64,000 nucleotides of DNA, taken from NCBI GenBank assembly GCA_964597365.1, contig CAZQXW010000007.1, forward strand, positions 2,268 to 66,267, read 5' to 3'. The notes beneath the pieces are model-generated. The model worked only from the letters and a program-made list of their open reading frames with translations, ran no database searches and was not told the DNA's origin. Source of the stretch: an uncultured Thermoplasmatales archaeon. GTDB lineage: Archaea > Thermoplasmatota > E2 > DHVEG-1. This document shows positions 5,878-18,437 of this stretch, piece after piece. A program made the translations under genes and the position numbers. The first letter of the stretch is position 1, and each line of letters starts with the position of its first letter.

Positions 5878-6099
5878 GCCTCCTCAAGAGAACGTAATCG
5901 TAAATGTCGGTGAAACCTTACAAGAAAAGACCAGAGAGCGAGGGGAGTACCGAATGTTGCCACTCGGCACTTCCCGCAACGCACGACCGCCAGTCAGTCT
6001 CTCCAAAGAAACCCTCGACCTCAAGGACACTCGCTAAGGGTCTATCGGTCTCGGGTATCTCCGGCAGCGGTACGGTCTGGCACCCCCGCTCCCCAGCAA

Positions 6100-6909: not shown

Positions 6910-7046
6910 GAACCCCTCCTAAAACAGAAAGGGGCAGGCAGACTGAACTTTACGGAGGTCTGCTATGCTCGAAACCACGAACAAACAGAAGCCTACCTGC
7001 CCCCGATAGTACATAATCGTATTGTACTACGAAACCTTACAGATAA

Positions 7047-7077
7047 AAAAAGACCCCTGCCGGGTGCAGGGGTCTCT
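7047..7077 (-). terminator. intrinsic terminator after HTH gene
   Basis: AGACCCCTGC-ACCCG-GCAGGGGTCT followed by T-run on minus strand. Confidence 0.8.
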
Positions 7078-7078
7078 C

Positions 7079-7348
7079 TTAACTTCTTGGCGTTGCATCA
7101 TCATTGTAGAGAGGGCCAAGCTCCAGTTCATCCCGGTCCTCGCCCTCCTCTACATACTCTTTCACCAACCGAGGTCCACTGGACCTCTTCCGTCTGATCT
7201 CCCTGAGATCATCGAGAGTGAACATCCTCGGCGTACCCGGTCCTCCGGGCTGGGAACCAATTCCATACTTGATGGCATAAACCACCATGGTATTCTGCTT
7301 GACTCCCAGCGCCCGAGCACCGGTCCTTGTACTGTAGAGTTTACTCAT
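7079..7348 (-). CDS. MerR/excisionase-like HTH DNA-binding protein
   Basis: YSTRTGARALGVKQNTMVVYAIKYGIG...PRMFTLDDLREI winged-HTH pattern. Confidence 0.65.
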   Translation of the reverse strand: MSKLYSTRTGARALGVKQNTMVVYAIKYGIGSQPGGPGTPRMFTLDDLREIRRKRSSGPRLVKEYVEEGEDRDELELGPLYNDDATPRS

Positions 7349-7484
7349 TGCTCAGGATCGCGGGCTTTAGCTTACGCTTAGCTCTCGCGTACTCCTCGAA
7401 CTTGATCTCTCCAGCACGGAGACGCCGCTTGAGGTCCTTCCACTGTTGCAACGCCTCTTCCTTACTGATCATCTTCTTTGCCAT
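7341..7484 (-). CDS. small basic hypothetical protein (47 aa, not in ORF track)
   Basis: GGAGG SD, MAKKMISKEEALQQWKDLKRRL...; fills the gap between two genes. Confidence 0.55.
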   Translation of the reverse strand: MAKKMISKEEALQQWKDLKRRLRAGEIKFEEYARAKRKLKPAILSNE

Positions 7485-8005
7485 GCGTCCTCCTCCGGGT
7501 CTTCTACCCGTCCTTTCGCAAGAGTCTTTCCTCTCTCACGAAGCTCTTCCTTACGTTCCGGCGAGAGTGTAGGACTCTGTCGGAACTTCACCCCATGTTC
7601 ACGGTATGCCTGTCGAAGCATCCGACCGGCTTCTTTCCGCTTAGGGTGCCATCGATCCATGAGTTGGGCGAACAGTCTCGCCCACTCCCTGCCATGCGCA
7701 GCGCTGTTAGGCGGCTGCAACGCATGAGCGATCTCGTGAAGCACCACAGTATACGTCCGTGCCCACTTCGGAAGATTTAACGCACGGGGTCCTCCCCGAG
7801 CTATCCGCGTACCTCTTCCATCCTTGATCCTCGGTGCCTCTTCAACACGAGCAAGTCCACGCTTCCAACACCATCGCCACACTTCGTCGACGAAATGGTT
7901 TACAGCGTGCATAGACCCATCCCCTACCGTGTCGTTTACGATCCATGGTAGGGATCGCTCCGCAGCATACGCCTTACTTCTTTGGCTGTCTCTCGGCCGT
8001 TTCAC
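7469..8005 (-). CDS. SprT-like zinc metalloprotease domain protein
   Basis: VVLHEIAH (HExxH) plus AAHGREW third-ligand motif. Confidence 0.75.
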   Translation of the reverse strand: MKRPRDSQRSKAYAAERSLPWIVNDTVGDGSMHAVNHFVDEVWRWCWKRGLARVEEAPRIKDGRGTRIARGGPRALNLPKWARTYTVVLHEIAHALQPPNSAAHGREWARLFAQLMDRWHPKRKEAGRMLRQAYREHGVKFRQSPTLSPERKEELRERGKTLAKGRVEDPEEDAWQRR

Positions 8006-8382
8006 ACAGACCTCCGTGCAGCCTTTCGCATAGCATCCGCAGCGTTACGTGCAAGCTGCTTTTCGAGAACCTTCTTGATCGTACGGATGTCTTTCTTCTG
8101 GCCGTCGACCATCACCACAGACCGGTAGATTACGTGTGCCTTACCGTCTCTGCTCTCATGAGCCTCTTCGAACCGAAGCCGCTGCTCCCACGTAATCTGT
8201 TGGTCTCCCGTGTCTATAAACACAGGAGGACGGATGTGCTTCTCGATCAAGGCCGACCGCGCATTCTGATCTGAAGGGCAGCGCCAACGCACATACGCAT
8301 ATCTACACTTCTCGTGGTGCTCCAAGCGCTCCTCAAGTGCGTCCACTACCTCGTCTCCGACGATCCGCATAAACGCTTCCAT
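8002..8382 (-). CDS. hypothetical protein
   Basis: Start follows junction element with ACGGAGG SD. Confidence 0.7.
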   Translation of the reverse strand: MEAFMRIVGDEVVDALEERLEHHEKCRYAYVRWRCPSDQNARSALIEKHIRPPVFIDTGDQQITWEQRLRFEEAHESRDGKAHVIYRSVVMVDGQKKDIRTIKKVLEKQLARNAADAMRKAARRSV

Positions 8383-8453
8383 ACAAACCTCCGTTGGGAT
8401 CGGTTATCCCGCAGGGAACACGGCTTTCCATGTTCCCCACGCGAGACCGATTA
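8383..8453 (-). repeat. intergenic RNA-structure element, family I copy 1
   Basis: UAAUCGGU-CUCGCGUG-GGGAACAUGG-AAAG-CCGUGUUCCC-UGC-GGGAU-AACCG-AUCCC-AACGGAGGUUUGU-AUG. Confidence 0.9.
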
Positions 8454-8963
8454 CTCTCCTTCGTATTCGGCCATCTGAAGCTCCTCCAGCTTCCCCTGAA
8501 GCCAGTCAGTGAACTCTTGAGGGATATTCCCCTCCTCGGGAACCTCGGGGCCTTCATAGTCATCGAGATCAACATCATCCAAAGCGTCTCTAAACGTTTC
8601 AGCTTCATCGACTCGACTCTGAAGCAACTCCCCGGTAGGTCCTTCCTGAAGACCTTCCGGCATGTTTCCCAGATTCTCCTCAGCCTCTCCAGAGAGTTCC
8701 TCGACCTCGCCGATTGCATCCTCGACCATACCCTTCAGGGTCTCAGCGTCACGCTCCCCTTCAGCAGAGAAGTCGTAGGTGAACCGTTCGTTGATCTCTG
8801 CCATCCGTGAAAGGAAGTCAGAATTGATCGTCTGGCTTGGCCGGGGGCGGGTCTTGCTGTAATGCTTACCGCCATACCGGAACTTCCACCAGTAGTATGA
8901 CTCTCCCTTCTTGGCTACCGGGTTATCCTTCCGTGCAGCCTTCACGAAATACACTCTTGCCAT
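8451..8963 (-). CDS. conserved phage hypothetical protein
   Basis: MARVYFVKAARKDNPVAKKGESYYWWKFRYGGK N-terminus resembles a recurrent phage family; acidic coiled-coil C-terminus. Confidence 0.75.
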   Translation of the reverse strand: MARVYFVKAARKDNPVAKKGESYYWWKFRYGGKHYSKTRPRPSQTINSDFLSRMAEINERFTYDFSAEGERDAETLKGMVEDAIGEVEELSGEAEENLGNMPEGLQEGPTGELLQSRVDEAETFRDALDDVDLDDYEGPEVPEEGNIPQEFTDWLQGKLEELQMAEYEGE

Positions 8964-9033
8964 AACAAACCTCCTCGGCTCAATCAGCCGCGTCAGACCG
9001 GGGAATATTCCCCGGTCTGCCGTAGGTGATTCA
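8964..9033 (-). repeat. intergenic two-hairpin junction element (divergent)
   Basis: 12-bp stem CAGACCGGGGAA/TTCCCCGGTCTG, then CGGCU/AGCCG hairpin, then AGGAGG SD. Confidence 0.75.
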
Positions 9034-9351
9034 GCTGAGGTCTCTAATCGCTTTGTTGATATACGACTGAAGCATCTGCTCAGCGTACTGCTGAGCCTCG
9101 GTCTCATCATCGAATATCCACGCACTCTTGATGACCTCATGGTTGGGGTTGCAATACCGGCACATCACCACAGCCGCATAACAACCATCTTTCGGATTCC
9201 GATTCGTCTCTGGCTTGTACCTCCGACGAATCTCGTTGGCGATCACCGCTTCACGCATGGTGTCCTCACCAACATCGTCGATCAGCTGATCCGGGACCGC
9301 CATCTCAGCCAGTCCCGACATCAGTTGTCTCAATCTCTCTCCGGGGTCCAT
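9031..9351 (-). CDS. hypothetical protein
   Basis: Packed ORF. Confidence 0.6.
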   Translation of the reverse strand: MDPGERLRQLMSGLAEMAVPDQLIDDVGEDTMREAVIANEIRRRYKPETNRNPKDGCYAAVVMCRYCNPNHEVIKSAWIFDDETEAQQYAEQMLQSYINKAIRDLS

Positions 9352-9352
9352 G

Positions 9353-10033
9353 TCATTCCTCCATAGGCATAGCTACCACATGCTTCGCCTCAGACAGTCC
9401 TTTGGCGTAGCACTCTTCAAACACGCACAGGTCGGTGCCCGTTTCCCCTACAAGAATCCTCTTCGGCTTCAGGATCGCCAGATACGCCCCATCGAATACG
9501 ACCGTGATGCGAACCTTCGAGACATCTGCCTCACCGTAGTTCAGCGACATCTCGGCGGTATGGTTTTGGTCTCGGGCATGGATTCCTTCCGGGGATATCT
9601 TAACCAGAGTATTACCAAGCTTCTTTCCATCGAACGCATCCAGATACCGATAGAACTCCTCCGGTATCTCCACAACACGTTCTCCAGAAGGTCGTTTTCT
9701 CAGCACGTTCTCGATGTTCGGATAGGTAACCTCAGCAGGCTCCAACGTCTTTACATCGACCGCTTCCGGCCGCACATCCACAGCATCGACCTCGCTGATC
9801 AACACATGAGCGTTGGTGTAGCACCGCTTCCCACCTTTGATCGCAATCACGTCCGTGAACTCACGAGAAGTTCGACTAACCCTCATAAGCCGTCGGGCGA
9901 GCTTCGTGAATGAATCAGCCTTCGGCTTAGATGGTCGTTTTTCCTCTTTGGCACATTCGTGGCATAGCACCCGCCCATCAGCGGCACGAACCTCGAATCC
10001 TCCTGTGTCCTCATGACACTTGTCACAAATCAT
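9353..10033 (-). CDS. Zn-finger protein with possible beta-clamp-like C-terminal domain
   Basis: CDKC/CHEC N-terminus; YPNIENVL, VVFDGAYL and VVAMPM motifs reminiscent of DnaN domains. Confidence 0.45.
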   Translation of the reverse strand: MICDKCHEDTGGFEVRAADGRVLCHECAKEEKRPSKPKADSFTKLARRLMRVSRTSREFTDVIAIKGGKRCYTNAHVLISEVDAVDVRPEAVDVKTLEPAEVTYPNIENVLRKRPSGERVVEIPEEFYRYLDAFDGKKLGNTLVKISPEGIHARDQNHTAEMSLNYGEADVSKVRITVVFDGAYLAILKPKRILVGETGTDLCVFEECYAKGLSEAKHVVAMPMEE

Positions 10034-10153
10034 AGCATCACCTCCGTTCTGCTGTTTCGGACTAACCGTCCGCGAATGCCCTCCGTAGAGGGCACCCGTA
10101 GAGAGTCAGCGAATAGAACCCCTATCCACCTCAATAGTCTGAGGTACAACCTA
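10034..10153 (-). repeat. intergenic multi-hairpin junction element (divergent)
   Basis: GUGCCCUC-UACG-GAGGGCAU, CGGAC/GUCCG hairpin, AACGGAGG SD. Confidence 0.75.
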
Positions 10154-10351
10154 CTGCACATCGAAGTGCTCGAAGACCATATCGATCAGATGGCTCCGAT
10201 CATTGCACATAGCCTCGCTCAGAAACGCATCAACGGTCTCTTTTGGCCATCCTGCTTTGCGGGCAGCCCTGCGACATACCGCCAAGATAGCCATGGAGTT
10301 TCCTCCGGGACCCTCAAAGTCCAGTACAACGCTTGGCTTCTCTACCATCAT
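10151..10351 (-). CDS. conserved small phage protein
   Basis: GPGGNSMAILAVCRRAARKAGW...DRSHLI resembles a common small phage family. Confidence 0.7.
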   Translation of the reverse strand: MMVEKPSVVLDFEGPGGNSMAILAVCRRAARKAGWPKETVDAFLSEAMCNDRSHLIDMVFEHFDVQ

Positions 10352-10656
10352 CGACCTCCTTTGATCTTATCGATCAGAGCATTTCTCTCTTGCTCTACGA
10401 TACTCCCCGGATCACCACCGAACTTCTCGACCTCATACCAGAGAGCATCCCGATCATACGTGAGATACAGGTGTTCCGGGAGATTCCCTTCTGCATCTCT
10501 TGCGTTCCTTCTCAGCCACCGCCGTAACACTATACGCTCGGCAGCCTGTATCCGCTCGGCGTATCTCCTTGCGAATCGTCTCATCGTGTCACTCACAGCA
10601 AACCTCCCAATGAGCACCCGACCCGAAAGTCGGATGCTCCGTGTGAGGGTGCTCAT
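10348..10656 (-). CDS. hypothetical protein
   Basis: ATGA overlaps on both sides. Confidence 0.6.
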   Translation of the reverse strand: MSTLTRSIRLSGRVLIGRFAVSDTMRRFARRYAERIQAAERIVLRRWLRRNARDAEGNLPEHLYLTYDRDALWYEVEKFGGDPGSIVEQERNALIDKIKGGR

Positions 10657-11822
10657 TCAGAGAGAACCAGAACCTCACCAAAGGGAGGACGGAACTCTCG
10701 GGAACCATAGCCGCGCATCGGCTTCTGAACCCAGAGCACAGGGTAAGGCGGCGCATCAGGGAAGTCGTCACACATCCCATCGGTGAAGTACACCATGCAC
10801 CTCGGAGCTTCGCCCCGATCTGCAAGGTACGTAAACGGGGGAACGAAACTCGTACCGCCGCCACCATACGCCTTGAGGGATACTCGATCCCCAGCAGGAA
10901 ACTCATCTACATGATCAATCTCATGATCACAGTAGATCACCGTGCAGTCAGCCCGGTAGTCTTCGAGGATCGAATTGATCTCAGAAGCGAACTCGTTCAG
11001 CTGGCTCTGACGTATCGACCCGCTGGTATCTACCGCCGCCACTACTTGGCCCAACTCGTTGCTATACAGCGACGGAAGGTACAGTCCCTGACCGATGTAT
11101 CGTCGGTTAGGACGACTCCAAGAGAAGTCGTTCTTCGCGGATGAATCCACGAACCTTCGGAGAATCTCTCTCCAGTCAAGCTTTGGTTCCAGTATCTCCT
11201 TCACAATTCGTTCCAGAGAACCGGGGAGATTGCCTGCGACCTTGGCTTGCTGTGCAGCCTGAGCCATGGCAACCTTCCACTCCTGCGACTGCTGACGCTG
11301 CTCTGCCTCGGACGCTTGGGACTCTCCGTCCTCGCCCTTGGCATCACGAACTTCTCCGCACCCACCGGGATCAGGGTTTTCGTCCCCTTCTCCCTCACCT
11401 TCACCGCCGCTGCCTCCCTGCTGATCCTGATCAGGTAACAGAGAGTACACTTGTTCTGCGGTCATGTTGGCATACGATGAATCGATCAGACCACCATCCG
11501 GCAGGCTCATACCTGCATCTCGAATGATTAGATTGATCACATAGTCAGCCGCCATGTTCCACTTTTTTCTATCGCGGTTGCCTCGGCGGGTATGATGCTG
11601 AAGTCCACAGTGGAGAACCTCATGACAGATCAGACCTTTGAGTTGATCCATCGAGACCGTTCCGATGAACTGCGGGTTGTACCCGAGCGTCTTCCCATCG
11701 GTCCACGCAGTCTTACAACTGGTGTCCTCGACAGATATCAGCCGCAGTGCCAGCGATCCGAAGAACGGCTGGTCGAGTACAAGACCTGCTCTACCCTTTG
11801 CGAACAATTTTGTTGCACTCAT
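10653..11822 (-). CDS. metallopeptidase-like + VWA domain protein (DUF2201 type)
   Basis: TAWTDG...ICHEVLH (HExxH), WNMAADYVIN, acidic linker, VAAVDTSGSI MIDAS, GGGGTSF, YFTDG. Confidence 0.9.
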   Translation of the reverse strand: MSATKLFAKGRAGLVLDQPFFGSLALRLISVEDTSCKTAWTDGKTLGYNPQFIGTVSMDQLKGLICHEVLHCGLQHHTRRGNRDRKKWNMAADYVINLIIRDAGMSLPDGGLIDSSYANMTAEQVYSLLPDQDQQGGSGGEGEGEGDENPDPGGCGEVRDAKGEDGESQASEAEQRQQSQEWKVAMAQAAQQAKVAGNLPGSLERIVKEILEPKLDWREILRRFVDSSAKNDFSWSRPNRRYIGQGLYLPSLYSNELGQVVAAVDTSGSIRQSQLNEFASEINSILEDYRADCTVIYCDHEIDHVDEFPAGDRVSLKAYGGGGTSFVPPFTYLADRGEAPRCMVYFTDGMCDDFPDAPPYPVLWVQKPMRGYGSREFRPPFGEVLVLSE

Positions 11823-11899
11823 TGCAAACCTCCGTAGATGGAAGTGTCCATCCATCGAGGGCACTCTTTCGAATGCCCTCTGTGCATGGTCCGTGCTTA
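11823..11899 (-). repeat. intergenic two-hairpin junction element (divergent)
   Basis: GAGGGCAUUC-GAAA-GAGUGCCCUC, GAUGGA/UCCAUC, UACGGAGG SD. Confidence 0.75.
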
Positions 11900-12742
11900 C
11901 TTACCGAGGTAGCCTGCCATCTTATCCAAGATGGCCTTAGCATCCTTGGCAGTTTGCGCACGTACTTCCGGTTCGGTGCGAAGCACCTCCGGCTGTACTT
12001 TGGCGAGCTTCTGGGAGACCTCCTTGCGGAGATTCTCCAGATCGGGATCGTTGGCAACGTTGAGCTTGGGCAATAGATTGACCATCTCAACAGCGTTCTC
12101 CACGAGGGAGTCGCGGAAGATTTTGTCAGGCTCCGAAAGGGTCTCAGCGAATCGCTTGACCACGTCAGCAACCCGGACATAAAGGTCCTGAGTCGCCTCC
12201 TGCATTCGGCGCTCGATACTCTCTTCCAGTGCCTTGGCGATCTTCTTCTGGTCTCGCTGCTGGAGCTTGACCCTGAAGTCTTCCTTGTGCGGCACGGGTT
12301 CGATGCTTGTGTCGAAGCCAAACTTTCGTTTGATCTCTTGCGTGTTCGGGTAGTCGGCGGGGTTGAACATTCCATTCAGAGCCTCTTTCGCTCGCTCACG
12401 GTACTCAGGGTAGTTCTGTATGAACTCCTCAACCGCCTGATCGAACCGCTCTTTCAGCTGGCGCATCTCTTTCGAGTACTCCATGAACTCAGCGGCCGGG
12501 AGAAGCCGTCCACCGAAATCGTCCCACGGGAGCGTATGCTCATAGTGGTACGAACGGGCCGCCGTAGCAGCACGGTCGATGGTCTGTATGGCTTCCTTAG
12601 CGATCAGTACCTTGTTGAAGCGACCGGCATCGTCTCGCGCTCCAAGATCACGAATGACCTTGCGCGTGACGCCTTTGTCGAACTTTCTCGCAGTCCACTT
12701 TGATATGGACACTCGAACGATCATTGCCTCTTCATGTAGCAT
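11897..12742 (-). CDS. DUF3150-like protein (MoxR/VWA-associated)
   Basis: AMIVRVSISKWTARKFD...TLPWDDFGGRLLP...YP; position between MoxR and VWA genes. Confidence 0.75.
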   Translation of the reverse strand: MLHEEAMIVRVSISKWTARKFDKGVTRKVIRDLGARDDAGRFNKVLIAKEAIQTIDRAATAARSYHYEHTLPWDDFGGRLLPAAEFMEYSKEMRQLKERFDQAVEEFIQNYPEYRERAKEALNGMFNPADYPNTQEIKRKFGFDTSIEPVPHKEDFRVKLQQRDQKKIAKALEESIERRMQEATQDLYVRVADVVKRFAETLSEPDKIFRDSLVENAVEMVNLLPKLNVANDPDLENLRKEVSQKLAKVQPEVLRTEPEVRAQTAKDAKAILDKMAGYLGK

Positions 12743-12839
12743 CGCAGTACCTCCGTTGGGGCGGGTTTGGTATCGGTTGCCCGTCCCCCTCCCCCCGCTC
12801 CCCCGAAGGGGAGTGAGGGGTAGGTGAGGAACAACCTCA
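12743..12839 (-). repeat. intergenic RNA-structure element, family II copy 1
   Basis: CCUCACCUACCCC...C-UUCG-G hairpin, GGGACGGG/CCCGCCCC, AACGGAGG SD. Confidence 0.8.
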
Positions 12840-13820
12840 GATGAGAACGTCTGAGTGATCTGCTGACCACTTGATGAACGCACGAGTGTTGACAAGTGAA
12901 TCGTCTCGCTCGATTGCATCACGAACCAGCAGCACCGAGAACTCCGGGTCAAGACGATTTGAGTACTTGACGATGTTATCGAAGTTCTGGTCAGTTGCCT
13001 TTTGCGAGAGCGCTCCGCATATCGCATACTTGGTCGCGGGATCACTGGGCACCTCTGCTTTGTCAGGGGCCATGATGATCATATCAGGATCGGGCAAGCT
13101 CCTGAAAATCTTCAGGAAGCCGATCAACTCAGCCGCCGCGCCTTCACCAACGATCCCTGAGACGAGTTCATACTCAATCTCATCCCCAGCAACCGCGAGC
13201 ACATCGCTCACGAACTGCCACGACCGGGGAGTCGGGAACGCCTTCTCGTTCTTCTGCGGGTCAAACGCGTGGAGCAGGTTGGGGCGATACCGCAGAAACG
13301 CGATAAGCTCCGTCTGGATTCCAGCGTTCAACGCCCACCTGACCCAATCCTCCAAATCAACATCAACGTTGAGATGGATGAACCGGTTCGCGAGTGGCGA
13401 TGGCATCCTCGACGTGACAGCCCGGTCAGTCTCACGGTTCCCTGCCGCGATTACAATCGCGTTCTTGGGAAGCTCGTACTCACCGATCTTGCGATCCAGC
13501 ACCAGCTGGTAACAGGCAGCCTGCACCAGCGGAGGGGCCGCGTTCAACTCGTCGAGGAAGAGGATGTACTTGCCCTTGCCTTTCGGCAGGAAGGAAGGCG
13601 GTGCCCACCTCGTCTCACCGTCCTCGGTCACCGTGGGAATACCACGGAGATCAACCGGGTCCAGCAGGACAGCACGCACATCGATCAACGTATAGCCGAG
13701 CGTCTTTGCGATCTGTCGGACCACGTCCGACTTGCCGATACCGGGAGGACCCCACAGGAACCCCGGACGACCAGCCTTGATCAGCGCTTTGAGCGCCTCT
13801 GCTACTATTGACAGTTTCAT
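12837..13820 (-). CDS. MoxR-like AAA+ ATPase
   Basis: GPPGIGKS Walker A, LFLDELNAA Walker B, IAAGNR sensor, SPLANRF arginine finger. Confidence 0.9.
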   Translation of the reverse strand: MKLSIVAEALKALIKAGRPGFLWGPPGIGKSDVVRQIAKTLGYTLIDVRAVLLDPVDLRGIPTVTEDGETRWAPPSFLPKGKGKYILFLDELNAAPPLVQAACYQLVLDRKIGEYELPKNAIVIAAGNRETDRAVTSRMPSPLANRFIHLNVDVDLEDWVRWALNAGIQTELIAFLRYRPNLLHAFDPQKNEKAFPTPRSWQFVSDVLAVAGDEIEYELVSGIVGEGAAAELIGFLKIFRSLPDPDMIIMAPDKAEVPSDPATKYAICGALSQKATDQNFDNIVKYSNRLDPEFSVLLVRDAIERDDSLVNTRAFIKWSADHSDVLI

Positions 13821-13903
13821 CTGCAAACCTCCGTGGGATGGATTGGTTTTGGTTGACCATCCCCCTCCCCGCCCTCTATGGAGGGCGGGGTAGGTGAGGG
13901 TCA
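13821..13903 (-). repeat. intergenic RNA-structure element, family II copy 2
   Basis: CCCUCACCUA-CCCCGCCCUC-CAUA-GAGGGCGGGG, GGGAUGG/CCAUCCC, ACGGAGG SD. Confidence 0.8.
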
Positions 13904-14110
13904 CTCTGAATCGATGCTCTTGAGTATCTCACCCTCCGGGGAGAGGTACTCATTATCAATGAGCGACTTGGCCATACGCCCATAGCTGCCTTGCAGCCGC
14001 CATGCCGTACCGGTCTTCACGAGTTCGCTGAATAGCTCCAACGCATCCTCATCGCTCATCTCACCAGACTCATAGTCGATAATCTTATCGACGATCTGTG
14101 TTCCATCCAT
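13901..14110 (-). CDS. conserved small phage protein
   Basis: IVDKIIDYESGEM...ELFSELVKTGTAWRLQGSYGRMA resembles a widespread phage family. Confidence 0.75.
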   Translation of the reverse strand: MDGTQIVDKIIDYESGEMSDEDALELFSELVKTGTAWRLQGSYGRMAKSLIDNEYLSPEGEILKSIDSE

Positions 14111-14174
14111 AACAAACCTCCGTTGGGATTGGTTATCCCAGAAGCGCCCCCGTAGGGACGCCCCCGCGAGATCA
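14111..14174 (-). repeat. family I element copy 2
   Basis: UGAU-CUCGCGGG-GCGUCCC-UACG-GGGGCGC-UUC-UGGGAU-AACCA-AUCCCA-ACGGAGGUUUGUU-AUG. Confidence 0.9.
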
Positions 14175-14426
14175 ACCCTCTTCGTTCTTTTTGGGTCGAT
14201 TGCCAGCAAGCAACGCATCGATGTTCTCCACACCTCGAATCAGTCGATGAATAGTTTTTATGGCGTCCTCTCGTGCGTTCACAAGATCGGCCTCAGAAAC
14301 CCGCTTGTTTCCACCACGAATCGACGTAGCATAGTCACGAACGCCCTTTGTTGCCGGTAAAATAAACGTACCGTTCACATCGAACATTCGAACTTCGGGA
14401 ACCTCTATCGTAATCTTTTCTGACAT
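14172..14426 (-). CDS. hypothetical protein
   Basis: Bounded exactly by two junction elements. Confidence 0.7.
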   Translation of the reverse strand: MSEKITIEVPEVRMFDVNGTFILPATKGVRDYATSIRGGNKRVSEADLVNAREDAIKTIHRLIRGVENIDALLAGNRPKKNEEG

Positions 14427-14493
14427 AACGAACCTCCGTGGGATCGGTTATCCCGGAAGAGGCTCCGTAGAGCCTCCCCCGCGAGTCCGATCA
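14427..14493 (-). repeat. family I element copy 3
   Basis: UGAUCGGA-CUCGCGGG-GAGGCUC-UACG-GAGCCUC-UUCC-GGGAU-AACCG-AUCCC-ACGGAGGUUCGUU-AUG. Confidence 0.9.
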
Positions 14494-14700
14494 GCGGTGT
14501 CGCTTCCGGTGTACTACTACCAGTACACCCTTCGCTCGGGATTCCTTCGGGTCGGGGTCATTCACATGACCACCTTGACGGTATCCCAAAGCATAGGCTC
14601 TGGCTTCTGCCTGTCCGTGGAACTCGGAAAGGTCCCGAGGTTCTTTGTGACTGACACGATCTTCGAACCCGTCTGCGAACGCCTTGTACTCTTCTCTCAT
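14491..14700 (-). CDS. hypothetical protein
   Basis: Bounded by junction elements. Confidence 0.7.
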   Translation of the reverse strand: MREEYKAFADGFEDRVSHKEPRDLSEFHGQAEARAYALGYRQGGHVNDPDPKESRAKGVLVVVHRKRHR

Positions 14701-14767
14701 AACAAACCTCCGTGGGATTAGTTATCCCAGAAGAGGCTCCGTAGAGCCTCCCCTGTGAGACTAATCA
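14701..14767 (-). repeat. family I element copy 4
   Basis: UGAUUAGU-CUCACAGG-GAGGCUC-UACG-GAGCCUC-UUC-UGGGAU-AACUA-AUCCCA-CGGAGGUUUGUU-AUG. Confidence 0.9.
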
Positions 14768-15043
14768 TTCTTCCCAATGCCATGCTTTGAAGTAAGTCAC
14801 CTTGACTTCAGCAATGGGAGCCTCAGGCATGTTTCCAACTGCCCGAGCATAGTTGCGACTCACATCACAACCCTTGGACCGGAGAAACCGTTCCACCTTG
14901 TGGCGCTGCTCTACAGAGCTACAGTCAATGTACGCTCGAACGTCGCGGCCGTACGCTTCACAACGATCCCGCTGCACGCTCTCAGTAACGTCCATACCGA
15001 ACTCATTCAAGTAGCCTACCAACTTCTTTACGCTTACTCTCAT
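14765..15043 (-). CDS. conserved phage hypothetical protein, first gene of promoter-1 transcript
   Basis: ACGGAGG SD at MRVSVKK; VTYFKAWHWEE C-terminus. Confidence 0.7.
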   Translation of the reverse strand: MRVSVKKLVGYLNEFGMDVTESVQRDRCEAYGRDVRAYIDCSSVEQRHKVERFLRSKGCDVSRNYARAVGNMPEAPIAEVKVTYFKAWHWEE

Positions 15044-15249
15044 CACAGACCTCCGTTGCCCGTTTTGGGCGATGTCCCCACGCCGGGTGCTGACCCCGGC
15101 CAGAACCCTGCCATAGGCATTCCGGGGTAGGGGATGTTTCGTCGAGAGCCGACGGTAAGGTGCACGAGCCGGAGGTCGCCTTGGCCCACAACTCACAACG
15201 TAAGCCATGAGCAAACCCGTGCACCCAACCGCAGGCTCTCACCTGCGGG

Positions 15250-15455
15250 GAGGTATTGCATCCTTCTCTTATCCGGCGAGCATCCACGGAACTTGATAGC
15301 TCGGGGGCCGCTGGCTCCTGCCAGCATCCGCTCACTCACCTTCTTCTTTCAAAGACCATTCAGGTCTCGGGGGATTCCCTCTCCCCCTTTCCTTATATTT
15401 ATATTATATCACGATACCGTGATTATGTCAACAAGTTGTTTTTCGGGAGATAACT
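15250..15455 (-). repeat. duplicated promoter + leader block, copy 1
   Basis: Colinear similarity to 17470-17675 including GCUAUCAAGUUCC, CCGGAU and GGAUGC..UACCUCC. Confidence 0.85.
15403..15431 (-). promoter_or_regulatory. consensus sigma70 promoter P1
   Basis: TTGACA (15426-15431), 17-bp spacer, TATAAT (15403-15408); A-rich upstream element. Confidence 0.9.
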
Positions 15456-15630
15456 GTATGACGTGTTCTGTAGAAGATTGCCGGGAAGACTGTCCCGGCG
15501 CAGTCGGCATTGAGAGTCCCCTCGGGGACGCCACAGGGTGTGCCGAAATCTTGTTCCCTCCTAAACGGAGGCGGGTTGTTCAGACCCGGAATTGGGGTGG
15601 GGCAGGAGGCACGAACCCACATCCACCCTT

Positions 15631-15852
15631 TCACTTGATAATGTAGTCTACCTCCCGGTGCCCTTCACAAAGAGCGTAGAACGCCTTGCGCTCCTCACTC
15701 TCGACAGACCGGGGGATGCCTAACGCATCGGCCACGAACGTTCGGTCAATCTCCCACTGTTGCAGCTTGTCACGCCTCACTTCCGTGAGCCGTGGAGATG
15801 CAGCAGGATCAGAAAACCGAAACGCTCTGGCAACTGCTTCAATCTGTGTCAT
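15631..15852 (-). CDS. hypothetical protein
   Basis: Start follows family I element. Confidence 0.7.
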   Translation of the reverse strand: MTQIEAVARAFRFSDPAASPRLTEVRRDKLQQWEIDRTFVADALGIPRSVESEERKAFYALCEGHREVDYIIK

Positions 15853-15921
15853 AGCAAACCTCCATTCGGGATCGAGTATCCCGGAATGGGGTCCGTAGAC
15901 CCCACCCCGCGAGTTCGATCA
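15853..15921 (-). repeat. family I element copy 5
   Basis: UGAUCGAA-CUCGCGG-GUGGGGUC-UACG-GACCCCAU-UC-CGGGAU-ACUCG-AUCCCG-AAUGGAGGUUUGCU-AUG. Confidence 0.9.
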
Positions 15922-16389
15922 GACAGCCCGATATACGGACTCTCCGTTGCTAAAGGTTCCCAGCTTTCGGTACAGGTTGATACCAATACCTCTAAGCTTC
16001 TCCGCAATCTCATCCTCATGCTTGAGCGCCCATTCAGCCGCGAACTCTTCCCAGTTCCGTTTGACGGGCTCCCATGCGCTATCGGAAGGCTCCTCACAAG
16101 GAACCAAAGACAGGGAGCAGAAGCTCATGTACTCGCAGAGCACCACATCAACAATACCGTTCGACGCGATGGCGTGCTCTTCGTCATGATCAAAACCCGG
16201 ACCCCACCGATCCTCCGAGATGAAAGGATCGTCCATCGTGGAAAGCCCTCCACGAATGTTGTCAACCATGAAATCCCAATAGATTTCGGCAAGGTCTTCA
16301 AGATAATTGCCGTCTTCGTCGTACCCATCCTCATACGGAAAATGGTACGTCACTGCGGCGTTACGTGGAACCATTACTGATCTACCCAT
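15919..16389 (-). CDS. conserved phage hypothetical protein
   Basis: HAIASNGIVDVVLCEY...LGTFSNGESVY resembles a recurrent early-gene family. Confidence 0.7.
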   Translation of the reverse strand: MGRSVMVPRNAAVTYHFPYEDGYDEDGNYLEDLAEIYWDFMVDNIRGGLSTMDDPFISEDRWGPGFDHDEEHAIASNGIVDVVLCEYMSFCSLSLVPCEEPSDSAWEPVKRNWEEFAAEWALKHEDEIAEKLRGIGINLYRKLGTFSNGESVYRAV

Positions 16390-16458
16390 TGCAAACCTCC
16401 GTGGGATTAGTTATCCCGCAGGGTGCTCCGTAGAACACCCCACGCGAGACTAACCTCA
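16390..16458 (-). repeat. family I element copy 6
   Basis: UGAGGUUAGU-CUCGCGUG-GGGUGUUC-UACG-GAGCACCC-UGC-GGGAU-AACUA-AUCCC-ACGGAGGUUUGCA-AUG. Confidence 0.9.
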
Positions 16459-17097
16459 GTTCAGGATGTACCGCTCTACGCTTTTGGCGAGGTTGGGCAC
16501 ACCGTGACTACTGGGGTTCCAAGGCGCTTTCCATGTTTCGTCAGGAAGCGACTTGATGTAGTTGACCGACTCTTGAACATGCTCTTTCGAAGTGTAAGGA
16601 CCGATCCTACGAAGAGCATCGATGATCCGGCCAACCGTAGCCTTGACTTCGTCCGAGTACAGATCACTGCGAAGGACTTGCCGAAGCTCTTCCTCATACT
16701 GACGGGCAAGGATGGACCAATACCGCATCGTAAGAAGAGCCACATCCTCGGGATTGGGGATGACATAGGAGAAGCACTCACGATAATCTCGGGTGCTCGC
16801 CCGTTCCTGAAGGCGGTTGAAATCGTTGAGCGTTCGCTCATACTCCTCTCGACCGCACCCAATAACGTGCGCCCGAAGGTCCATCCAACCATCATCACTG
16901 ACTTCTCTGATCTCTCGACCAGTTCGGTGCTCGATGCCCGCAAGCTCTTCCATCTTCTCGTAGTACTTGTCTTGCAGTTCCTTCAGATCGTTGAAACTCA
17001 TCGTGCGGAGAAGCTCCACCGTACGAGCATCGTAATCATACCCCGCATATTCCCAGCGGAAGCTTTCGACAATTTCCCAAAATCTCTCTTCAGTCAT
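16456..17097 (-). CDS. DUF4240-like domain protein
   Basis: MTEERFWEIVE...SDDGWMDLRAHVIGCGREEYE. Confidence 0.65.
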   Translation of the reverse strand: MTEERFWEIVESFRWEYAGYDYDARTVELLRTMSFNDLKELQDKYYEKMEELAGIEHRTGREIREVSDDGWMDLRAHVIGCGREEYERTLNDFNRLQERASTRDYRECFSYVIPNPEDVALLTMRYWSILARQYEEELRQVLRSDLYSDEVKATVGRIIDALRRIGPYTSKEHVQESVNYIKSLPDETWKAPWNPSSHGVPNLAKSVERYILN

Positions 17098-17141
17098 AGC
17101 AACCTCCCGGTACGCTCGGATTGGTTTTAGTAGTCCGAGCG

Positions 17142-17471
17142 TCCCTTGCAGTGCACTCCGTGGGCGGGAGAGCTTGTCTCCCGCCATGGCATCAGCCAGC
17201 GCGATGTACGCTGACCTTCTTGTCGACCTCGTAATACGGAACGTCCTGTCCAGTGATCTTCGCAACCGTTCCCCGAGAAACTGCCTGAACATTTTCCCAG
17301 AAATTGTCGCACCGACGGATTTGAACATCCCACATATTGGGCTCGTCTTCACGACCCATCCATGCGGGGATTCTCACAAACCGAACCGTGTCCGAATGTT
17401 CGATAACGTCTACATAGTTTGCCATGGTGCACCTCCGTTGGGCAGTCGCCCACGCAGTGCACTCCAAGGGA
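17142..17471. repeat. 25-bp inverted repeat (23/25) flanking a single small gene
   Basis: +17142-17166 TCCCTTGCAGTGCACTCCGTGGGCG vs +17447-17471 CGCCCACGCAGTGCACTCCAAGGGA. Confidence 0.85.
17192..17425 (-). CDS. hypothetical protein, first gene of promoter-2 transcript
   Basis: UGGGC/GCCCA hairpin plus ACGGAGG SD before MANYVDV. Confidence 0.7.
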   Translation of the reverse strand: MANYVDVIEHSDTVRFVRIPAWMGREDEPNMWDVQIRRCDNFWENVQAVSRGTVAKITGQDVPYYEVDKKVSVHRAG

Positions 17472-17675
17472 GGAGGTAAGCATCCCTCTCTGATCCGGTT
17501 GGTTTCCATGGAACTTGATAGCCAAAGCCGCTCACGTCCTGCGAGCATCCACTCGCCAACCTTCCTCTTTCAAAAACCCTTGCCAATCTCAGGAGCCTTT
17601 CCTCTCCCTTGATTACATTTATATTATATCATGGTATCGTGATTGTGTCAAATTGTTGTTTTTCAGGAGATAACG
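17470..17675 (-). repeat. duplicated promoter + leader block, copy 2
   Basis: Homologous to 15250-15455. Confidence 0.85.
17623..17651 (-). promoter_or_regulatory. consensus sigma70 promoter P2
   Basis: TTGACA (17646-17651), 17-bp spacer, TATAAT (17623-17628). Confidence 0.9.
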
Positions 17676-17697
17676 TGTTTACTGAATGTTGGCTTGA

Positions 17698-17747
17698 TAA
17701 AAGAAAACCCCCGACCGGCAAAGGAGGTAGGAACGCCGGTCGGAGGG
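17698..17747 (-). terminator. intrinsic terminator insulating the early region
   Basis: CCCUCCGACCGGC / GCCGGUCGGGGG stem followed by UUUUCUUUU. Confidence 0.75.
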
Positions 17748-17828
17748 TGGGACACCGAAGGCTCGCCTGCACACATGCACACAGGAAAGCTCCCTTCTAT
17801 CTATATGGTAACACGAGAGGACCGATCC

Positions 17829-18437
17829 TCAAACACCATACGTGATACGAAAGGGCTGGACGTTCTCGCGCAACTCCCGCGTCGACAGTCGACGGTTATG
17901 ACCGCCCTTGCCATCAGGAAACCTCGCGCCCCACGGATCATTATATATCAGTTCTCGGGTTTGTGTATCGTATGCCAGCACAGCAATATAGTGCCCCGGA
18001 TTCTTGAGACACAGCTGCACCGCCCTTCCCCTATCCAGTTCCTTAACTATGCTCTCCCACTCATTCCCCCATTCAAACCTTCCCCGTACTCCAAATACGG
18101 CGTACACCCCATGAGGGTAGTATTGCGGAACTCTGTTCTCCGGCAGCATATCTACAACAGAGTTTGATCTGATCTCTCGCAAATCATCCTTGATCCGAGG
18201 ATCATTGAAGAAGTCCATCAGCACTTCCTCCGGCTGTGGTTTGAATGTTCCCGGACACGTAATATCCACACTCTTCCCCATCGCTGCCAAACAGTTCACC
18301 GCTGCCGTAGGTCCGCAGGACTCCAACCAGCTATCTCGGTCATGTCGAGTAGCTTTCAGATACGCCTCAGTTGGATTGTTCTCTTGACTGTAGTACCTAC
18401 CCCGATCATTCCAAAACCGTACACCTTTGTGTCTCAT
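17829..18437 (-). CDS. peptidase C39-like (papain fold) protein, candidate lysin
   Basis: YYSQ...SCGPTAAV (Cys), GHYIAVLAYD (His), LIYNDPWG. Confidence 0.8.
   Translation of the reverse strand: MRHKGVRFWNDRGRYYSQENNPTEAYLKATRHDRDSWLESCGPTAAVNCLAAMGKSVDITCPGTFKPQPEEVLMDFFNDPRIKDDLREIRSNSVVDMLPENRVPQYYPHGVYAVFGVRGRFEWGNEWESIVKELDRGRAVQLCLKNPGHYIAVLAYDTQTRELIYNDPWGARFPDGKGGHNRRLSTRELRENVQPFRITYGV

Follow-up and report, generated by a model that had tools for sequence, protein, structure and literature searches.

The early sites of the phages SP82 and SPO1 are RNase III processing signals analogous to those of T7, and the promoter early stem-loop (PeSL) cassettes of T4-like phages are repeated stem–loop junction modules residing between small early genes in hypervariable regions and proposed to promote shuffling. 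Here, we describe the RNA elements filling the gene junctions of an early operon in a stretch of 64,000 nucleotides (hereafter, the window), deposited with the assembly of an uncultured Thermoplasmatales archaeon (GCA_964597365.1, contig CAZQXW010000007.1, positions 2,268 to 66,267 of the forward strand). The plan common to all sequence families of these elements is a stop codon, a long hairpin, a small hairpin and the GGAGG of the Shine–Dalgarno sequence (SD), and the slots which they occupy are probably points of RNA cleavage. Repeated processing hairpins are already known from the early regions of phages (T7, SP82), as are ribozyme clusters from prophages (PMC3088659); the hairpin families reported here are undescribed, covariation-supported RNA motifs, and their new aspects are the two-turn design reaching from the stop codon to the SD, the competing SD-proximal hairpin, and the fact that hammerhead and twister ribozymes directly take their place at orthologous junctions.

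The T7 early sites (R0.3, R0.5, R1, R1.1 and R1.3) resemble these elements in being related intercistronic hairpins of an early transcript made by the host RNA polymerase (RNAP), whose helix of about two turns is broken by a mismatch or an internal loop and which are expected to leave a 3′ hairpin on the upstream mRNA (PMC3867540). The ideal RNase III substrate is a 22-bp duplex, i.e., two turns, and where the target site contains a mismatch or internal loop, a single strand is cut and a stabilizing 3′ hairpin is left (PMC3867540). The context also resembles that of the T7 early region: a long polycistronic transcript, two perfect sigma-70 promoters, and no terminator tails at the junctions. 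Unlike in T7, however, the helix starts on the stop codon and ends 1–7 nt from the SD, and a second hairpin (HP2) competes with its lower part; there is no sequence similarity to the T7 sites, and cleavage is here predicted only. The clusters of type II hammerhead and twister ribozymes in prophages (Perreault et al. 2011, PMC3088659; PMC6765202) likewise sit at operon junctions and extend from the stop codon to the SD. A role in cutting long transcripts was proposed for clustered hammerheads flanking single genes, with cutting shown in vitro (PMC3088659), but the roles of self-cleaving ribozymes in phages and bacteria are still largely open (PMC6765202). In contrast to these ribozymes, the elements of the window fit no ribozyme model and look like plain irregular hairpins, so their cleavage would need a protein enzyme unless they represent a new class.

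The array comprises 13 non-overlapping junctions of 56–117 nt each between positions 8383 and 17191; three more junctions in this interval overlap or abut. All are intercistronic, between co-oriented genes, and two promoters serve the whole array. The folding z-score is −3.5 to −5.6 in 12 of the 13 (about −0.45 to −0.74 kcal/mol per nt), which bears out the structured junction family placed by the original prediction, made from the sequence alone, at about 14 junctions within 8.4–17.5 kb. Its statement that genes elsewhere mostly abut or overlap was upheld as well: outside the array, genes overlap or abut, and the gaps in the replication and late regions are mostly shorter than 30 nt or unstructured, with z near 0. 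The same is true of the tetraloops and strong SDs it had noted, since 4-nt loops (UACG, UUCG-like and GAAA types) cap 40 of the 45 junction hairpins of the phage group, and all ten occurrences of the extended SD GGAGGTTYG in the window are at the junctions (8384–16400). The geometry was surveyed in 45 non-ribozyme junctions of nine phages, belonging to at least four sequence families, by taking the best unbranched hairpin of each. The hairpins span a median of 50 nt (interquartile range (IQR) 44–51) with 19 bp (IQR 17–21) and 23 rungs (IQR 20–23.5), and the median distance between the foot of the hairpin and the start of the stop codon is 1 nt.

Six junctions hold copies of one family, designated Family I, in which an inner hairpin (hairpin 1) can be extended by an outer helix (P1) and is followed by HP2. 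The copies are given below with their scores in the covariance model R1 (see below).

16390..16455, minus strand: Family I, from the DUF4240 gene to the gene of a 156-aa protein; P1 GGUUAGU/ACUAAUC; R1 76.6 bits.
15853..15918, minus strand: Family I; P1 GAUCGA/UCGAUC; 70.2 bits.
14701..14764, minus strand: Family I; P1 GAUUAGU/ACUAAUC; 81.4 bits.
14427..14490, minus strand: Family I; P1 GAUCGG/CCGAUC; 83.9 bits.
14111..14171, minus strand: Family I without the 5′ arm of P1, hairpin 1 and HP2 kept; 64 bits.
8383..8450, minus strand: Family I; 14-bp hairpin 1, P1 AUCGGU/ACCGAU; found with R1 and with the pattern.

The element at 16390 carries the conserved core, a 12-bp hairpin 1 with a UACG loop, HP2 GGGAU/AUCCC, and the SD ACGGAGG. 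The pattern GGGATA-N4-ATCCC-N2-5-GGAGG has six matches in the window, all on the minus strand, against zero expected, and they coincide exactly with the six copies which the original prediction had called homologous (8383, 14111, 14427, 14701, 15853 and 16390). Nine more copies reside on two related metagenomic phage contigs (L084 and L086), relatives having been located via exact-protein look-ups of homologues of the 156-aa gene and of DUF2201. The model R1, built on an alignment (A2) of all 15 copies from the three phages, was run on the window, on about 300 kb of related loci and on the complete 2.3-Mb assembly, and returned solely the known copies. Among the 137 contigs of the assembly, the six copies are all on the phage contig (C7) that holds the window. 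A host-wide intergenic repeat (repetitive extragenic palindrome, bacterial interspersed mosaic element or miniature inverted-repeat transposable element; REP/BIME/MITE) was rejected on the grounds of this confinement.

In A2, 93.5% of the cells of the full hairpin are paired, and 13 of 21 pairs display double-sided changes; none of 500 shuffles reaches the observed values, and slid controls stay far below. The alignment and covariance model once suggested as a check of the motif have thus come out in its favor. Hairpin 1 has double changes in eight of its 11 pairs and occurs in 13 different sequences among the 15 copies, with the pairing always kept; the stem pairs quoted earlier as varying yet remaining complementary were correct, and the covariation now extends over all 15 copies. 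Frequent G·U pairs were recorded at three columns (in 10, 14 and 11 of 15 sequences). Because of them, the Family I fold belongs to the sense RNA, and the covariation, the strand-specific G·U pairs and the lack of an Rfam match all agree with the earlier view of RNA elements acting after transcription. The identity of copies is 0.66 within genomes and 0.63 between them; concerted evolution within a genome was rejected on these figures.

Of the secondary structure proposed at the outset, hairpin 1 and the second hairpin stood, but the helix P1, competing with the latter, had been missed. In P1, 6–7 nt from within or just after the stop codon pair with the loop and the 3′ arm of HP2 (GUCAGU/ACUGAU is a further example), three positions change in a compensatory manner, and covariation is seen at columns 5–9/53–57 (CG to UA three times, GC to AU three times, and others). 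Together with two invariant pairs (U-A and C-G), a purine–purine mismatch and the 12-bp hairpin 1, P1 makes up one irregular hairpin of about 51 nt, whose core, 5′-UC-R-C / 5′-G-G-GA with the purine–purine mismatch, is central and invariant. The full hairpin has about 19–21 bp and about 23 rungs (20–23 bp and 23–26 rungs in the copies with P1); it begins at the upstream stop codon or at most 1–3 nt from it and ends 1–7 nt before the SD. P1 and HP2 are mutually exclusive, each with covariation support. Those four Family I copies in which the 5′ arm of P1 is missing retain HP2, and HP2 shows a compensatory change in the copy L086_1448 (GAGAC/GUCUC). An SD-proximal hairpin equivalent to HP2 was found in 30 of 33 junction 3′ modules (mean z −4), with arms varying across the families: GGGAU/AUCCC, GAGAC/GUCUC, CGGAC/GUCCG, CGGCU/AGCCG, GGGAUGG/CCAUCCC, and more.

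Further sequence families occupy the remaining junctions of the window as well as those of the relatives L089, L096, L098, L100, L102 and L103 (39–60% GC). In the window, these junctions are as follows.

17098..17191, minus strand: structured junction with two hairpins and the 3′ half of a 24-nt long-range duplex.
13821..13900, minus strand: Family II, upstream of the gene of a MoxR-type AAA ATPase; CCUCACCUAC, hairpin, GGGGGAUGG...CCAUCCC, SD.
12743..12836, minus strand: Family II, downstream of the AAA gene.
11823..11896, minus strand: Family IV, from DUF3150 to DUF2201; CACAG, GAAA-capped hairpin, CGAUGG, second hairpin, SD.
10597..10652, minus strand: Family IV-like; stop-proximal CCCUC pairs with the SD across the hairpin.
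10034..10150, minus strand: composite, with a Family III element (weak R1 match at 10051-10108) behind two small hairpins.
8964..9030, minus strand: Family III; UGA-AUCACCUACGG, hairpin, ACGCGGCUGAUUGAGCCGA, SD.

The general form of Family III is UGA-N-YCUACGG-hairpin-ACGCGGAC-loop-GUCCGA. The slot and motif of 11823..11896 are kept in all six of the relatives just named. The post-stop bases of Families II and III (UCACCUAC, CCUCACCUAC) resemble the 3′ end of 16S rRNA (AUCACCUCC) at 8964-9030, 12743-12836 and 13821-13900 and in relatives; they pair with SD-like G-rich tracts (GGAGGGGGA) behind hairpin 1, i.e., as anti-SD/pseudo-SD pairs.

The same slots harbor self-cleaving ribozymes in the relatives, where the Rfam search returned eight Hammerhead_II and one Twister-P5 ribozyme, all located in junctions between genes of the same operon. 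The slot just downstream of the AAA gene holds a Family II element in the window (12743-12836), L096 and L100, a Hammerhead_II in L089 (11823-11895), and a Twister-P5 in L102 (2885-2945). Directly before this gene, the Family II element of the window (13821-13900) corresponds to a Hammerhead_II in L100 (7947-8018), and the Family I element at 16390, before the 156-aa gene, to a Hammerhead_II before the homologue of this gene in L089 (9922-9989). Hairpin families replace each other, too: the junction orthologous to 8383..8450 holds a Family III element in the closest relative, L096. The cores of the hammerheads are intact; they start 0–5 nt past the stop codon and extend to the SD, and their cut site lies between two hairpins, so that the upstream RNA would end in one and the downstream RNA begin with one. 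Hammerhead and non-ribozyme junctions hence share one layout, hairpin–hairpin–SD. A tRNA gene sits in an early-operon junction of L084 (1594-1672), and others in intergenic gaps further along L103 (2935-3006) and L089 (18681-18782); such junction tRNA genes would be a third kind of processing element beside ribozymes and hairpins.

The slot is read as a cleavage point because relatives hold self-cleaving ribozymes at the same or orthologous junctions. Somewhat more tentatively, and by analogy, the junction elements themselves may be intercistronic RNA processing and stability modules of an early operon transcribed by the host RNAP, cut by an RNase III-type enzyme. Cutting of this type is proposed since the conserved two-turn length of about 23 rungs fits the 22-bp substrate; Family I copies with P1 have the size of RNase III signals (about 20–22 bp of double-stranded RNA, often with a central mismatch), and the helix center of Family I coincides with the invariant core. 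A host double-strand-specific endonuclease would recognize the two-turn helix and cut at its center, at the conserved mismatch. The cut would fall on the 3′ strand at the core, i.e., at the foot of hairpin 1, and the upstream mRNA would keep hairpin 1 as a 3′ protector. The short P1 duplex would then dissociate, and the freed 3′ strand would fold into HP2, so that HP2 would form a hairpin at the 5′ end of the downstream mRNA, ahead of the SD. P1 would thereby have its role in the precursor and HP2 in the product, and the products would equal those of the hammerheads at the same slots in relatives (hairpin, cut, hairpin, SD). A 24-nt long-range duplex brackets the gene 17192-17425 in the mRNA (17142-17165 and 17447-17470, minus strand): the leader sequence CCCUUGGAGUGCACUGCGUGGGCG pairs with CGCCCACGGAGUGCACUGCAAGGG of the next junction over 22 of 24 positions, with two G·G mismatches. 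It resembles an RNase III excision stem of the rRNA-operon type and was counted for the RNase III reading; its exact seeds are shorter than 9, and it is absent from the inverted-repeat scan.

Several points weigh against cleavage by RNase III. Four of the 15 Family I copies are devoid of the 5′ arm of P1 and have only 14–17 bp. Neither HP2 nor the tight overlap with the stop codon is required by RNase III cleavage itself, and the sharing of slots by ribozymes and hairpins shows them to be equivalent in position, but does not show this for their chemistry. Alternatively, the conserved core may bind a protein or be catalytic, and the putative cut position was deduced from geometry alone. As for the earlier inference of a gene-by-gene control or processing system, the processing part gains strong support from the comparison with relatives, i.e., from Hammerhead_II and Twister-P5 in the same and orthologous slots, but the gene-by-gene regulation is not.

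Among the other explanations, a ribosome-gated two-state switch or translational coupling has a low, albeit appreciable, probability. The terminating ribosome would melt P1, whose 5′ arm is inside its footprint, and the 3′ strand would refold to HP2 or free the SD, making the translation or processing of the next cistron dependent on the translation of the previous one. This would agree with the median distance of 1 nt between the foot of the hairpin and the start of the stop codon, although the ribozymes in the same slots also begin at the stop codon and the adjacency may reflect compaction. It would also agree with P1 and HP2 being exclusive and both supported by covariation, although four Family I copies have no P1. 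The native stop-proximal 13 nt stabilize the fold more than swapped ones do (−6.9 vs. −4.4 kcal/mol, p = 9e-8; these nucleotides partially overlap hairpin 1). In several junctions outside Family I, an anti-SD-like post-stop stretch (CCUC, UCACCU) pairs with the SD, and opening the first 13 nt raises the predicted SD accessibility there from 0.12 to 0.71, from 0.02 to 0.78, and from 0.20 to 0.74. The predicted folds agree with coupling of the RNA-unfolding type at the junctions W_13821, W_11823 and W_10597 and in some relatives, but not at five of the six Family I copies, in which the SD has a predicted unpaired probability of 0.57–0.78 in the free fold. With the SD of Family I open in both states (0.57 to 0.59, 0.78 to 0.80, 0.78 to 0.89), its unmasking by a P1/HP2 switch was rejected for this family. 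A precedent exists in the rpmI-rplT coupling at +52 nt (PMC12548453). In rpmI-rplT and in the f1 VII-IX coupling, base pairs similarly form, over an intervening hairpin, between the stop-adjacent sequence and the next ribosome-binding site region (PMC12548453), but in Family I the SD is not sequestered. Moreover, coupling is not needed by the downstream genes, all of which have a strong SD and an ATG, and the 50-nt length ruler is left unaccounted for. A plainer possibility, which appears rather improbable, is that the hairpins are uncut stabilizers or insulators, i.e., inert exonuclease blocks presenting a standard single-stranded SD in the absence of any specific cut. The hairpins are indeed very stable and variable in sequence, with UNCG- or GNRA-type loops, the extended SD is uniform and restricted to the junctions, and different families interchange at one orthologous junction. 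The invariant core, the conserved length, the P1/HP2 alternative and the ribozymes of the relatives would nevertheless be left unexplained.

Only a small chance is given to one or more of the hairpin families I–IV being a new self-cleaving ribozyme class which replaces hammerhead and twister at the same junctions; the UC-R-C / G-G-GA core and a pairing of the stop-proximal strand with the HP2 loop would form the active fold. Twister-sister, pistol and hatchet were discovered through associations of this sort (PMC6765202), and the same logic applies to elements that share slots with hammerhead and twister, place invariant nucleotides in an internal-loop core between variable helices, and have no Rfam match. 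The covariation of P1 is concentrated in the part pairing with the HP2 loop, which a pseudoknot would fit too, but the 5-nt HP2 loop without a linker makes a true pseudoknot sterically doubtful. Essentially, each element is a single irregular hairpin with few unpaired conserved bases; copies without P1 persist, and four families with different cores would each need catalysis. Operators for a trans-acting RNA-binding protein (of the CsrA/RsmA type, or similar to phage RegA/RegB) tuning or shutting off early translation seem slightly less plausible still. A conserved GGA does occur just 3′ of hairpin 1 in all families (GGGAU, GCGGAC, GGAGGGGGAU, GAUGGA), 12–25 nt upstream of the GGA of the SD, and the extended SD ACGGAGGUUUG is confined to the early operon. 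However, both folds pair the upstream GGA instead of exposing it in a loop, the presence of ribozymes at these slots in relatives is unexplained, and the screening of the early proteins against PHROGs and Pfam recognized no RNA-binding protein candidate, nor an RNase. The reading given the least credence sees the junctions primarily as DNA-level recombination linkers, i.e., stretches of short homology through which phages would exchange gene cassettes. A hypervariable block between the promoter and the AAA gene, which has no homologues in the closest relative, contains five of the six Family I copies; in L084 and L086, the 156-aa and 69-aa genes have homologues that are placed elsewhere but also have Family I elements at their flanks; and the element family was swapped at one orthologous junction (Family I here, Family III in L096). 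Yet compensatory changes and G·U pairs matter only in sense RNA, and hairpin 1 is too variable for homology (13 sequences in 15 copies; identity 0.66 within vs. 0.63 between genomes). More likely, cassette exchange is a side effect rather than the function: the hypervariable block, the traveling homologue and the family swap lend circumstantial support to the shuffling envisaged earlier, but not as the primary role.

Other described systems were compared and set aside. No junction element was called a terminator on the minus strand; GGGAU... or GGA... follows the hairpins, and an intrinsic (Rho-independent) terminator was rejected for want of a U-tract behind them. The start-associated sequence (SAS; GGGATAGGAGCCC, 13 bp) and extended SAS (ESAS) of Cluster K mycobacteriophages form an oriented repeat which includes the SD directly upstream of many non-structural genes (PMC3203893). 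Like the elements described here, the motif is often preceded by an inverted repeat and has no assigned function (PMC3203893), but the sequences are other, and the inverted repeats of ESAS lack RNA-pairing support according to their authors (PMC3203893), whereas covariation is present here. SAS flanks the SD on both sides; here, the SD is outside the GGG...CCC box. Membership in SAS/ESAS was rejected, as the consensus GGGAUA-N4-AUCCC-N2-5-GGAGGUUYG has no GGGATAGGAGCCC box over the SD. PeSL units each contain an early promoter, whereas two promoters serve the whole array here, so identity with PeSL was rejected, and its use as a partial precedent in the original prediction fails on the same point.

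Searches for known families and for further relatives were carried out at several levels. Rfam gave no match in the window at the gathering threshold, none at E ≤ 1 over 7000–18000, and noise only at E ≤ 10 over 13815–14775; at these three stringencies, the motif is as unrecognized as it was when first noticed. Known self-cleaving ribozyme classes (hammerhead, twister, twister-sister, pistol, hatchet, hepatitis delta virus (HDV), hairpin) were rejected for the window on the lack of an Rfam match, the same search being the one that does return Hammerhead_II and Twister-P5 in the relatives. Scans with the Family I pattern gave two chance matches in IMG/VR and one in GTDB genomes (Actinomadura). 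Megablast and blastn against cultured phages found no match, the relatives of the AAA protein in IMG/VR were too distant (≤45% identity), and terminase-profile scans of IMG/VR and metagenomes yielded few useful relatives.

The contig is 67.3 kb long, most of it being the window, and has 51% GC within a metagenome bin of about 33% GC. On the basis of this difference and of the related phage contigs measuring 87–97 kb, it is probably a mis-binned, incomplete phage genome. All genes of the window are on the minus strand. The array encodes small genes of unassigned function, the MoxR-type AAA ATPase, a DUF3150 protein and a DUF2201 VWA/metallopeptidase trio; on the evidence of promoters and gene content, we infer an array of early genes. 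The two promoters are as follows.

17623..17651, minus strand: early promoter 1, TTGACA-17-TATAAT with TG, 12/12 match.
15403..15431, minus strand: early promoter 2, TTGACA-17-TATAAT with TG, 12/12 match.

Both are of the sigma-70 type, perfect, duplicated and with an extended −10 element; strong sigma-70 sites were found only at 17651 and 15431, and none at the junctions. The palindrome ATCACG-N4-CGTGAT resides in the spacer of promoter 1, and its degenerate form ATCACG-N4-CATGAT in that of promoter 2. Promoter 2 is followed by a leader of about 360 nt (15044-15402), homologous to the leader of promoter 1 (17426-17622); the homologous portion, GGA-rich and about 200 nt long, has no Rfam match. 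The promoter/leader segment 15044-15630 also falls within the interval of the array.

Other RNAs of the phage group were encountered as well. A conserved structured RNA of about 120–150 nt is found in the window at 5878-6099 (minus strand), in L084 (4488-4636), L086 (8058-8204), L096 (15958-16199), L098 (14487-14827) and L100 (12870-13141). It consists of a stem (GAGUGCCAGA ... CUGGC ... CCCUC) with compensatory changes and then a U run, directly upstream of a conserved gene of about 110 aa in all six phages and downstream of the M23 peptidase gene where present; it may be an operon terminator or another RNA of no known family. Upstream of the M23 peptidase gene, the 169-nt spacer 6910-7078 (minus strand) is highly structured, with a z of −6.5. 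In L098/L099 (2283-4688), the large terminase of 801 aa contains a Hint_2 (intein) domain, absent from the 667-aa terminase of the window.

Overall, one phage lineage fills the same junction with a hammerhead, a twister, a tRNA or an undescribed two-turn hairpin, which amounts to a natural substitution experiment. The substitution argues that all occupants punctuate the early polycistronic mRNA into hairpin-capped units, and it makes matched pairs available for asking whether cleavage by ribozymes and by protein RNases interchange. The hairpin families are candidates for Rfam entries and for ribozyme assays, and the compact "stop-hairpin-SD" cassettes could serve as insulating parts in synthetic operons.

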